From Octopus vulgaris (lineage: Eukaryota), in NCBI GenBank assembly GCA_951406725.2, contig OX597815.1, positions 204,166,001 through 204,230,000 of the forward strand: 64,000 nucleotides of DNA, read 5' to 3'. The stretch's first letter is position 1. Each line of letters starts with the position of its first letter. This document shows positions 14,016 to 19,085 of this stretch, piece after piece. The notes beneath the pieces were generated by a model. It saw nothing but the letters and a program-made list of their open reading frames with translations, searched no databases and was not told the origin of the DNA. Position numbers and translations under genes: made by a program.

Positions 14016-15705
14016 GTAGGTCCCGGGTTGAGTCGGGGTTAACCACAGTAAATAAGGTACTCAATACATAGCAGGGTAAATTAATTTATTTTATAGAAGG
14101 AGCTTCTACAGGACTAGAACTGTTTCATTCAAAAGAAATCACCAGGAAGCTAGTAGACAAGAGTTGTTTTGGCATTTATACATTTAGGCAGGTTTAAATG
14201 GGTGGTGGTGGGAGACTTTTTTGGGGGTAGGCATGGCCCAAAACTGTCATTATTAGGGGAGTGGTCAAAGGAATCGGTGGTAAAGTAGATAAAAGAATAA
14301 ATAAAAGAATAAAAGAATAAAAAAATATAAAAATATAAATAGAAAACTAGAGTTTTAGGTAAGTGGGGAGACTCTCACTTGTACATCTACATATATATAT
14401 ACATACACATATACACACCCGCATATTCACATATATCTATGCATATACATACATACCCACATATACATACATATATATATACATACATACGTACACATAC
14501 ACATACATATATATATATATACATATATCTACATATATCTACACATACCCATGTACGTACACACAGATACACATATACATACACATACATACACATATGT
14601 ATACCCACTCGCACATATATATACAAATGCATATACATGCACGCACATACACACACAATGTTATTCTCTTATTTTAATTTTATTAACTACTTTTGTTTAT
14701 ATCTTTATTTTTATCTTGACCGGTCAGCTTGTCCCAAGGGATCTCTAAAGATTCCGTTTTTCTATCTACTTACCGATACGAACGCAAGCACTCACTCACG
14801 CCCACACATTCACACGTACACACACGCACGAGTTATATTCATACACGCCTACATCTACATACATTCACGTATATTCACATACACGCATACACATACATAC
14901 CTCAACACACCCACAGAAGACTAGTCCATACATATACACTAATTAATATATATACACATATACATGTACACATACATACACATACATACATATACATACA
15001 CATATACATATATATATATATATATATATATACATACATATTCATATACATATACATACACATATACACTCATACATATATACACATACACACATACATA
15101 TATATACACATATATATATATATATATATATATATATATATAACGGGAAGCTTTATGAAAAAATATATATATATACATATACATACATACATACATGCGT
15201 ACACACGCACACACACGCGCGCGCGCATCTATATATACACATAAGTACATACATGCATAAATGTATACATATGTCGATACATATGCATACACATCCGCAC
15301 ACACATGCGCCTCCTTATGTTCATAAAAACATACATGCATACTGGCATATACATATATACATACATGCATACTCAAATAATAATAATAATAATAATAATA
15401 ATAATAAATATATATACGTGCAGTTACCCATTATTCAAACGGATACCTACATATAAACATACCCATATATATCTATTTACACATATGTATATATACATAC
15501 ATACATACACACATAACTCTACATACTTACATATACATAAACACACAAGCGTACATATATATATATATATATATATATATATATATATATATATATATAT
15601 ATATATATATATATACACATATACATACACACACACATATATACACATCCATATACACATATACACATACACATATACACACACATACACACACATATAT
15701 ATATA
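14016..15705 (-). mobile_element. Non-coding hammerhead-bearing element (Penelope pLTR/retrozyme-like), left arm of large inverted repeat
   Basis: Reverse complement of ~17335-18888, with unique blocks nearly identical; extends ~70 bp further at its 3' end (14016-14085). Body is TA/CA-rich low-complexity sequence with no real ORF. Confidence 0.7.
14101..14151 (-). ncRNA. Type I hammerhead ribozyme motif with mutated core (CUGGUGA)
   Basis: Minus strand: agcttc CTGGTGA tttcttttgaat GAAA cag ttctagtc ctg TA gaagct; identical to 18822-18872 except A6G in the core. Confidence 0.65.
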
Positions 15706-15711
15706 TATATG

Positions 15712-16702
15712 TATAATGACATCATCAAGCACAGCAACATAAAAATCTTTGCAGATGATTCCAAGCTACAGAAGGTCATAAATGAGGCGAGTGACCGGAC
15801 ATGCCTTCAGTCAGATCTACTGGCTGTTATCCAATGGGCAGAAAAAAACAATATGCTGCTGAACGAGGATAAATTTGAATTAATCCACTTTGGAAATGAG
15901 GATGCCCTGAAACTCCCATACTCCCTTCCTTCAGGTGAAACTCTCGCGGCGTCCAACAACATCAGAGACTTGGGAGTAATTGTGGACAACAACATAAGCT
16001 GGGCCACTCATATAAACACCAAAGTTGACATGGCCCACAGAATGTGTTCCTGGATTCTCAGAACTTTCCAGTCGAGAGATATCCACACCATTATCCTTCT
16101 CTTCTCCACTTTTGCCCGACTCCACCTTGAATACTGTTGTCCACTGTGGTCTCCCCACACAATACAAGGTATCATAAAAGGGCAATCACAAAAAAGATAG
16201 ATGGCATGACAGGCCTCGACTATTGGGGTCGACTAGAAAAGCTAAAACTCTATTCTCTCCAACGTCGTCGTGAGCGCTACATCATCTGCATGATGTGGAA
16301 AATATTCCATCAGCATTGCCCAAATGATGTTGGCATCACCTTTAAGGTACATCCAAGGCTTGGGCCCCGTGCCATCCGCCCAAAACAAAAATCGCACTCT
16401 CATCGCATAACAACAATACGGCACAATTATTTCACCTCAATTGGCCCCGCTCTCTTTAACATTACACCAAAACACATTAAAAAAGAAACTGACCCTATAG
16501 GGTTCAAGAAGTCTTTGGACAGATTCCTTCAAGAAATCCCGGATAAACCCCCTACACCCGGATATGACTCTGTAAACAATAACTCTCTACTTGAGTGGGA
16601 CATAGTGCCCAAATTCTGACTTGAAAGACTTCACCAGGTGGTGCTATTAAGTTAGACATGGCCTGGGCCAATAATGGCCGAAACCTATCAAAGTATCAAA
16701 GT
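15712..16702 (+). mobile_element. 5'-truncated CR1-group LINE (RT from the FADD motif to the 3' tail)
   Basis: [28 protein letters not shown], then after a frameshift YWGRLEKLKLYSLQRRRERY...SLDRFL; short tandem tail tatcaaagtatcaaagta. Confidence 0.9.
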
Positions 16703-17334
16703 ATATATATATATACATTTACACACACATTTTTACACATATATATATATACACACATACACATACACACACATACACATATATATACATATATATATAC
16801 ATATATATACATATATACATACACATGTGCATACATACACATATATACATATATATACATATATACACATACATACACACAAGCACATACATGCATAAAT
16901 GTATACATATGTTTATACAAATGCATACACATACACACACTCACGCGCCTCCTTATATACATAAATACATACATGCATACAAACGCATACTCATGTAATA
17001 AATAATGAATAATAAATAATAGATATATATACACATGCAGTTACCCTTTGCACAGACGGAAACATACATATAGGCATACACGTATATACCCATCTACACA
17101 TATGTATATATACATACATACACATACACACAACTCTACATACTTACATATACATAAACACACGAGCGTACACACATATATATATACACATATATATATA
17201 TATATATATATATATATATATATACATATACACACACACACACATACATATACATACATATATACACACATACATACACATACATACACACATACATACA
17301 CATATATATACATACACATACATACATACACACG

Positions 17335-18888
17335 TGTGTGTATGTGTATGTAATATATATATATATATATATATATATATATATATATATATATATATAT
17401 ATATATATATGTACGCTTGTGTGTTTATGTATATGTAGGTATGTAGAGTTATGTGTGTATGTATGTATGTATATATACATATGTGTAAATAGGTATATAT
17501 GGCTATGTTTATATGTAGGTATCCGTTTGAATAATGGGTAACTGCACGTATATATATTTATTATTATTATTATTATTATTATCATTATTATTATTATTAT
17601 TATTTGAGTATGCATGTATGTATATATGTATATGCCAGTATGCATGTATGTTTTTATGAAAATAAGGAGGCGCATGTGTGTGTGGATGTGTATGCATATG
17701 TATAGACATATGTATACATTTATGCATGTATGTACTTATGTGTATATATAGATGCGCGCGTGTGTGTGTGTGTATGTGTACGCATGTATGTATGTATGTA
17801 TATGTATATATATTTTTTTTTCATAAAGCTTCCCGTTATATATATATATATATATATATATGTGTGTGTGTGTGTATATATATGTATGTGTGTATGTGTA
17901 TATATGTATGAGTGTATATGTGTATGTATATGTATATGAATATATATGTATATATATATATATGTATATGTGTATGTATATGCATGTATGTGTATGTATG
18001 TGTACATGTATATGTGTATATATATTAATTAGTGTATATGTATGGACTAGTCTTCTGTGGGTGTGTTGAGGTATGTATGTGTATGCGTGTATGTGAATAT
18101 ACGTGAATGTATGTAGATGTAGGCGTGTATGAATATAACTCGTGCGTGTGTGTACGTGTGAATGTGTGGGCGTGAGTGAGTGCTTGCGTTCGTATCAGTA
18201 AGTAGATAGATAAACGGAATCTTTAGAGATCCCTTGGGACAAGCTGACCGGTCAAGATAAAAATGAAGATATAAACAAAAGTAGTTAATAAAATTAAAAT
18301 AAGAGAATAAAATTGTGTGTGTATGTGTGTGCATGTATATGCATTTGTATATATATGTGCGAGTGGGTATACATATGTGTATGTATGTGTATGTATATGT
18401 GTATCTGTGTGTACGTACATGGGCATATGTAGATATATGTAGATATATGTATATATATATATATATGTATATGTATGTGTACGTATGTATGTATATATAT
18501 ATGTATGTATATGTGGGTATGTATGTATATGTATAGATATATGTGAATATGCGGGTGTGTATATGTGTATGTATATATATATGTAGATGTACAAGTGAGA
18601 GTCTCCCCACTTACCTAAAACTCTACTTTTCTATTTCTATTTTTTTATTTTTTTATTTTTTTATTCTTTTATTTATTCTTTTATCTACTTTACGACCGAT
18701 TCCTTTGACCACTCCCCTAATAATGACAGTTTTGGGCCATGCCTACCCCCAAAAAAGTCCCCCACCACCACCCATTTTAACCTGCCTAAATGTATAAATG
18801 CCAAAACAACTCTTGTCTACTAGCTTCCTGATGATTTCTTTTGAATGAAACAGTTCTAGTCCTGTAGAAGCTCCTTCTATAAAATAAA
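17335..18888 (+). mobile_element. Non-coding hammerhead-bearing element (Penelope pLTR/retrozyme-like), right arm of large inverted repeat
   Basis: Block-by-block reverse complement of ~14085-15700, e.g. cccttgggacaagctgaccggtcaag, gtgagagtctccccacttacctaaaactc, ccaaaacaactcttgtctac. Confidence 0.7.
18822..18872 (+). ncRNA. Type I hammerhead ribozyme motif
   Basis: Stem I agcttc/gaagct; core CTGATGA (18828-34); stem II ttc-tttt-gaa with a U.U base pair position; GAAA (18847-50); stem III cag/ctg; GUA triplet with predicted cleavage after 18866. Confidence 0.75.
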
Positions 18889-19085
18889 TAAATATATATA
18901 TATATATATATATATATATATAATTAAAATCATATATATATATATATATATATATATATATATATATATATATATATATATATATATATATATATATATA
19001 TATATAAAATATATATATATATATATATATATATATATATATATATATATATATATATATATACATACACATACACACACACACA
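18889..19085. repeat. (TA)n/(CA)n microsatellite containing one ATTAAAATCA unit
   Basis: Continues the array at 13555-14015 on the other side of the inverted-repeat element (attaaaatca at ~18923). Confidence 0.9.

Follow-up and report, generated by a model that had tools for sequence, protein, structure and literature searches.

The 64,000-nucleotide stretch of Octopus vulgaris DNA considered here (assembly GCA_951406725.2, contig OX597815.1, positions 204,166,001 to 204,230,000; hereafter the window) contains a fold-back structure of about 4.9 kb, which is very probably, judging from sequence comparison, one insertion of an autonomous Penelope-like element (PLE) of the Hydra clade in a (TA)n repeat. 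Its inverted arms probably represent two complementary DNAs (cDNAs) for which a single uncleaved RNA served as template, with priming from each target end, and which were then joined. Taken together, the identity of the element and this two-cDNA origin form the best overall explanation, with a probability of about 0.8. In the following, signed positions are counted from the predicted cut site of a hammerhead ribozyme, after window position 18866; genome counts obtained by exact pattern are lower bounds.

The identity of the element rests on copies elsewhere in the genome in which the window sequence flanks a coding region. An earlier note, made from the letters of the window alone, had proposed a genome-wide search with the unique islands of the arms for copy number and linkage to reverse transcriptase (RT), and had suspected a Penelope connection together with the habit of these elements of carrying an inverted copy; the connection and the habit are supported by the data. 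Island D yielded 1,367 first-look candidates, with 40 of the 41 best matches being 93-100% identical. Among the 20 stretches fetched by this island, L032 and L034 carry an open reading frame (ORF) followed by the same untranslated region (UTR) and the hammerhead ribozyme (HHR), while L045 runs from ribozyme through tail and leader into the ORF start. Searching with the ORF start yielded 105 candidates, and all 20 stretches fetched have tail and leader ahead of the ORF. Window-type sequence stands after the stop codon of a 713-aa ORF of RT/GIY-YIG type and, in many copies, before its start codon as well. The arms are UTR of an autonomous PLE and not, as had been proposed, a non-autonomous family in its own right; the counter-case raised at that time, that the element is only the UTR of an already catalogued autonomous PLE, is correct as far as the UTR of an autonomous PLE is concerned. 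Unbroken 713-aa frames are present in two copies (L092 and L096), which differ at 38 synonymous and 24 non-synonymous codons. The distance from stop codon to cut site is 2073-3849 nt in 14 of the 15 measurable copies and 437 nt in the remaining one, and with an ORF of 2.14 kb and a UTR of 2.1-3.8 kb, the whole unit measures about 4.4-6 kb. The ATG lies at +138, with the start sites at +91 and +23 (see below) located 47 and 115 nt upstream of it. A PLE relic that the earlier note had placed at 5440-6735 and regarded as a possible mobiliser does not qualify, having only 27% protein identity and no DNA match; the relic itself (5504-6524, plus strand) is a decayed Hydra-like PLE of another family, with many stops and 27% identity to protein P0004.

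At the protein level, relatives of the 713-aa product number 1,081 out of 8,000 scored (E<=1e-20), those listed being 37-53% identical. Its predicted structure (mean predicted local distance difference test score, pLDDT, 87.8) finds its best fold match in telomerase RT (6zd1, E 1.9e-8), with other RTs scoring close. Pfam and PDB sequence searches with the ORF and 30 aligned relatives returned no RT or GIY-YIG match; the VY..YIG..F..R..H motifs of the ORF align with the Hydra endonuclease (EN) block in the supplement of PMC8557442, and PF01541 was found in 2 of 120 listed homologs. The motifs of P0003 (RWR, DKT, CNCPDKTTC and CDLC..E..N..CMH) agree with the Hydra-clade set given in PMC8557442, except for RWR in place of RWK, and the CCHH motif, judged by eye, is absent from P0003, as in the Hydra clade. 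Membership of this clade is assigned by sequence motifs, a canonical hammerhead and the (TA)n target. The family also possesses partial-tandem pseudo-long terminal repeats (pLTRs), an inverted 5' copy and a one-sided tail, as do EN+ PLEs, and exceeds the size typical of, although not defining for, Hydra elements (<3 kb). Assignment to Naiad/Chlamys, whose endonuclease is N-terminal and which lack a canonical hammerhead, was considered and rejected, given C-terminal EN-like motifs, the presence of a hammerhead and the Hydra motifs.

Several further observations concern this family. The frame is broken at the same place near codon 500, at a C-run, in seven copies (L081, L082, L084, L087, L095, L098 and L099), which may reflect recurrent slippage, a common ancestor or sequencing bias. 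The family was also found in contigs labelled as three other organisms (runs X10, X19 and X20, matched on L088:3000-5450), where summed depth on ribozyme and tail far exceeds that on the ORF; depth there does not equal copy number. At L046:8072-8605 (minus strand), adjoining a short terminus of the family, lies a relic whose translation resembles, by eye, the N-terminus of Hydra-1_Obim.

Within the window, self-comparison places the inverted arms at 14084-15715 and 17335-18889, and their global alignment contains 1501 matches, 35 mismatches and 116 gap columns. The scattered substitutions described previously are thus real, as is the microsatellite-like character of both arms, with unique islands and reading frames of low complexity only. 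The outer ends are unequal: the left arm extends 91 nt beyond the cut site (to 14016), whereas the right arm extends 23 nt (to 18889). From left to right, a (TA)n target microsatellite (13565-14015; 85 of 85 sampled long ends in the genome run into TA repeats) is followed on the minus strand by the PLE tail, +24 to +91 past the cut site, which forms the long terminus of the insertion (14016-14083). The tail is defined by end positions and by full-length copies, in which its sequence runs on into the leader and ORF start. Next to it lies the left arm, a 5'-truncated 3' UTR/pLTR of a Hydra-clade PLE (14084-15710, minus strand; 92% identical to L037 and 82-89% to the ORF-bearing L032 and L100), containing a type I hammerhead copy at 14101-14151 (minus strand). 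Contrary to the first description, the left copy does not end near 15700. It is interrupted by the 3' fragment of a long interspersed nuclear element (LINE) at 15711-16701 (plus strand), comprising a C-terminal part of RT and a short tandem-repeat tail, and resumes beyond it with an upstream 3' UTR repeat unit (16702-17334, minus strand; 90% to L037, 84-86% to L032 and L100), as shown by the uninterrupted copy L037, in which the internal (TA)n hosting the fragment is an empty site. The fragment is 94-95% identical to dispersed copies in L037 and L027 and had zero Pfam matches; we take it to be CR1-like. The right arm, an inverted 5'-truncated 3' UTR/pLTR copy with the short (+23) terminus, occupies 17335-18889 (plus strand) according to self-comparison, alignment and end positions, with its type I hammerhead at 18822-18872 (plus strand), and is bordered by the right-hand (TA)n target microsatellite (18890-19067). 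The central junction falls within low-complexity DNA. The window insertion is the long-armed form, with about 2.2 kb plus about 1.5 kb of UTR, later struck by the LINE; by itself, the locus is an ordinary dead insertion. The TA runs of the family's UTR serve as targets for other elements, such as the window LINE and a different PLE (GIY-YIG, PF01541) nested in (TA)n within the 3' UTR at L031:2900-6540 (minus strand), which is presumably Neptune- or Poseidon-like according to its motifs. Elsewhere in the window, a 36-bp remnant (37179-37214, plus strand) consists of post-cut and tail sequence of the same PLE family entering (TA)n.

The unequal ends of the window insertion follow a rule of the family. 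The genome contains at least 7,909 ribozyme 3' halves, at least 7,247 post-cut segments and at least 4,861 tailed ends, and copies end at two fixed positions, +23 and +91, beyond which (TA)n follows. In a set of 100 sites, 39 ends were short and 34 long, with read-through at the other 27. Of 24 divergent pairs from the initial loci, 22 combined one long with one short end. When an unselected sample was taken (the first 85 of 100 listed tailed ends on contig C1), an inverted partner was present at 63 of 85 long ends, with a short end in 62, an intermediate one in 1 and a long one in 0. The two arms of an insertion also resemble each other: a four-site haplotype is the same in both arms of 40 of 41 scorable pairs (2 further pairs unscored; chance expectation 0.27), and the base at N7 agrees between arms in 49 of 50 listed palindromes.

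The inner junctions point to a defined 5' end of the template. Among 148 arms, 84 end at -47..-33, within 13 nt of the first base of the ribozyme, and 35 of these end at -45, where stem I begins; perfect palindromes centred on the 5' AGCT number 657, versus 8 listed on the AGCT after the cut. A G foreign to the element stands ahead of -45 (at -46) at 875 sites, 443 of them without a second G, and local reading gave G in 13 of 23 unambiguous cases. Considering that A at -46 (343 sites) is confounded as a control by a subfamily with genomic A, the comparison was confined to a single subfamily with genomic T, in which G was counted by hand at 72 sites and A at 5, across an identical span. In all six of the closest-spaced pairs fetched, each arm ends at -45 with its own G, the arms being joined by 1-2 nt, and template jumps from ORF or leader sequence to -45/-44 occur at 7 loci. 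At the 5' ends of full-length L1 copies, an extra G has been interpreted as a copied cap (PMC4038843), and transcription of Penelope begins within its pLTR (PMC2377424). A 3' splice site at -44 (YAG in most subfamilies) was considered and set aside, the jump junctions having no common upstream exon or donor.

Templates starting at the cut site account for about 1% or less (96 non-A sites versus 7,247), with clear truncations in about 10 of 30 sites read. Truncation at +1 was tried as proof of cleavage and discarded: a script scored 21 of 30, of which 2 carry a small insertion but keep the ribozyme and 9 are joined via the stem I repeat, and the remaining clear cases, about 10, are not clearly above the neighbouring +3 position. 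Junctions that start exactly at +1 were recorded at L246 (G000:C15:44663200+), L254, L255, L263/L264 and L288/L289, two of them on both arms, and are possible traces of cleaved templates.

As regards the ribozyme, the hammerhead of the right arm has a 6-bp stem I, a 3-bp stem II closed by U-U and a 4-bp stem III, a layout matching the Hydra-clade HHRs in File S2 of PMC8557442; its core is intact, cleavage is predicted after 18866, and its constrained fold reaches -7.3 kcal/mol versus a minimum of -7.6. The earlier note had claimed a hammerhead in each arm, with an Rfam search as the check. The right-hand one has the layout described, while the left-hand motif reads CTGGTGA, with an A6G change in the catalytic core at 14142 that occurs in 1 of 100 family sites and predicts inactivity; a conserved type I core with three stems therefore appears only in the right arm. 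Rfam gave no matches in the window at the gathering threshold, with no hammerhead even at E<=10, and free folding does not yield a hammerhead, its stability being no better than that of shuffles (z -0.6 to +0.1). Because neither Rfam nor free folding lent support, the ribozyme call relies on motif layout and conservation. Across 150 sites, all five variants common to at least three copies within -38..+6 fall at free positions (N7 and loops II and III; p=0.001); when 7 truncation-affected 5' columns are kept, the figure is 5 of 11 (p=0.096). Since shared variants avoid the core and the stems, the ribozyme fold seems to be kept by selection, although cleaved RNA would seldom serve as template. 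In PAc, HHR cleavage is dispensable in vitro (PMC11167929).

These features can be accommodated in a single insertion scheme. The element protein, probably dimeric, would cut both target strands, after which one target end would prime at +91 and the other at +23 on the same uncleaved RNA. Each cDNA would be extended until it falls off the template, and the cDNA 3' ends would be united by short homology or end-joining. The commonest template would have a defined, probably capped 5' end at -45 and give rise to palindromes of about 200 bp, whereas priming in the 3' pLTR of a longer RNA would produce long arms, as in the window insertion, and repeated rounds on a small circular RNA would generate tandem arrays. 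A biochemical counterpart exists in PAc, for which cutting and extension of both strands, two start sites and a predicted dimer have been described in vitro (PMC11167929). Extended to a general rule, Penelope insertion would be double-ended, with one uncleaved RNA, its cap at the first base of the hammerhead, copied twice, from +91 and from +23, into head-to-head cDNAs; with a small circle as template, both cDNAs would roll and create new retrozyme arrays in one step. We give this generalization even odds.

Several points weigh against the scheme. Two of the 24 divergent pairs were scored short/short, both with a damaged end, and 22 of the 85 long ends had no partner within the 1.6-8.3 kb of flank. 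Concordance between arms could partly reflect conversion between them after insertion. Only 2 of 30 ORF-bearing arms stop at -47..-33; a single start site at -45 therefore does not fit the templates of full-length copies, for which a second, read-through class of RNA is required. The extra G may have a source other than a cap: a G also stands ahead of 4 of the roughly 10 clear +1 junctions, 432 of the 875 G sites could derive the base from the partner arm, and non-templated addition of G and T by R2 is known in vitro (PMC13000458). For PAc, start sites did not differ between strands in vitro (PMC11167929). Shared variants are absent among the 150 sites from stem II, stem III and the 3' strand of stem I, hence zero compensatory pairs to count, and RNA ends and cleavage are predicted here from genomic DNA.

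The closest competitor holds that a single cDNA starting at +91 snaps back and is copied to +23, so that the second arm is a copy of the first and not of RNA. Such a process would account for haplotype concordance between arms, for the AGCT-centred palindromes and for the 9 junctions that link -45 to +1 via the stem I repeat. On this view, however, the tailed arm should be the longer of the two in every case. Of 54 pairs whose 5' ends both fall inside -295, 21 have the longer arm on the tailed side and 24 on the short-ended side, while in 9 the arms are equal. The short-ended arm can even contain the whole ORF (L084, L100), and both arms may end with their own extra G. Furthermore, short arms more often than long arms have deletions of 1-2 nt in the 3' strand of stem I (12 of 61 versus 2 of 72; p=0.003), a bias that independent copying of each arm from folded RNA would be expected to produce. 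Pairs in which the short-ended arm is the longer contradict snapping back, which may explain a minority of insertions and is unlikely as the general origin of the fold-backs.

More doubtful still is the possibility that the window copy belongs to an ORF-less, non-autonomous subfamily whose transcripts are processed by the ribozyme and mobilized in trans. Tailed ends (at least 4,861) do greatly exceed tail-to-leader read-through sites (110), and none of the 41 best matches to island D is an ORF-bearing copy more than 95% identical, which also counts against the window being an insertion of the autonomous element itself. Yet the window sequence is colinear with the UTR of ORF-bearing copies, 5' ends and junctions vary by locus with no common deletion, and the left ribozyme is mutated, in addition to the scarcity of cut-site template starts noted above. 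A fold-back DNA transposon or miniature inverted-repeat transposable element (MITE) with long terminal inverted repeats would likewise present inverted arms, TA flanks and thousands of short palindromic copies; it is refuted by the unequal outer ends (+91 versus +23), the variable inner junction and a linked ORF that is of RT plus GIY-YIG type and not a transposase, and its probability is minimal. An assembly chimera is hardly more credible. No contig crossed the perfect palindrome at L138, although short-word assembly would not be expected to achieve this, and the centre of L243 appears garbled; on the other hand, the window arms differ at 35 positions and in repeat lengths, the LINE sits in one arm only, and the ends obey the long/short rule of the family. 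Uneven inverted joints inside the ribozyme are present in contigs of runs X18 and X19, and contigs of X19 and X20 terminate in TA at both ends.

Copying of one RNA from two start sites may also bear on tandem arrays of the family. The tail-to-leader pattern, with one mismatch allowed, has 110 sites in the genome, and more than half of the 100 listed sit in three fold-back arrays: L241 (G000:C8:91474600+; 271-bp units, 5 + ~26), L242 (G000:C2:64627800+; 277-bp units, 6 + 8) and L243 (G000:C5:37481000+; 333-bp units, 20 + 3). Each has one long and one short end, in (TA)n, and a junction of its own, at which ORF start or leader meets sequence from upstream of the ribozyme and which recurs nearly unchanged. 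A further locus, L245 (G000:C7:106787500+), is a trimer of 154-bp units. As in non-LTR retrozymes, every tandem unit in these four loci contains a type I hammerhead; the window copy, with two inverted copies and no tandem unit, differs from retrozymes in this respect. Non-autonomous ribozyme derivatives thus exist elsewhere in the genome, and the window copy is not one of them. From their sequence organization, the arrays look like newborn retrozymes, and the simplest account is likely to be that both cDNAs rolled around a small circle during reverse transcription; alternatively, they may have arisen by later tandem amplification of DNA.

Other elements are present in the window. An unbroken 1722-aa Helitron Rep/helicase frame (PF14214, PF05970 and PF21530, with N-terminal STPR repeats) occupies 20609-25777 on the minus strand. 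Tandem copies of a dispersed repeat, presumably related to short interspersed nuclear elements, lie at 11382-11757 and 53381-54214 (184 and 217 bp, respectively).

Features already known for PLEs include inverted 5' copies, tails at one end only, hammerheads in the pLTRs and insertion in (TA)n targets (PMC8557442, PMC4209133), and 31 recently active Penelope-like families have been reported in an octopus (PMC13282606). The origin of tandem and inverted PLE structures and of one-sided tails, as well as the role of the hammerhead, are described as open in PMC8557442. A literature search found no description of the present family or of its long simple-repeat-like UTR, although Repbase, Dfam or the library of PMC13282606 may already contain a consensus, and no counted one-long-one-short rule, G-marked 5' end or fold-back retrozyme arrays. 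The family and its genomic insertion record therefore appear to be undescribed. With thousands of young insertions and base-level junctions, it makes the open questions of PLE insertion testable in the form of explicit rules, namely that each insertion combines a long with a short end and derives from a single template, that the template has a defined 5' end at the ribozyme and that cleaved RNA is little used. If correctly interpreted, the fold-back arrays would directly show animal retrozymes being born from, and inserted by, PLEs. In routine annotation, simple-repeat masking would hide the UTR, and the 200-bp palindromes might be mistaken for MITEs.

In LINE-1 twin priming, both target ends prime on one RNA, which results in an inversion. 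The L1 segments do not overlap, whereas the octopus arms copy the same 3' region from two fixed starts. Hydra-clade PLEs, including Hydra-1_Obim (PMC8557442), share with the octopus family a single ORF combining RT with a GIY-YIG-type domain (predicted from motifs in the octopus family) at its C-terminus, the DKT, CxCX5C, CxxC and CxH motifs (RWR here replacing RWK), U-U at the base of stem II, the (TA)n target, 5' truncation, an inverted copy and a one-sided tail. Compared by eye with Hydra-1_Obim, the octopus family differs in N-terminus and ribozyme; the 27 Hydra families listed there measure 1,080-3,045 bp, against about 4.4-6 kb for the octopus element with its microsatellite-like 3' UTR of 2.1-3.8 kb, and the octopus tail is about 68 nt long instead of 30-40 nt. 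PAc, or Poseidon of Anolis (PMC11167929), is similar in having two internal RT start sites that bound the tail, an AT-rich target of which both strands are cut and extended, and an uncleaved RNA template; it belongs to another clade, and its start sites lie inside the ORF, whereas those of the octopus family lie upstream of the ATG. Non-LTR retrozymes (PMC7229834; bioRxiv 10.64898/2026.07.22.740005) have been linked to PLE pLTRs by co-occurrence and sequence similarity (bioRxiv 10.64898/2026.07.22.740005). Like the loci L241-L243 and L245, they consist of tandem, pLTR-related hammerhead units of 150-330 bp; unlike them, the octopus arrays are single-locus fold-backs with ORF-start/pLTR junctions of their own and +91/+23 ends in (TA)n.

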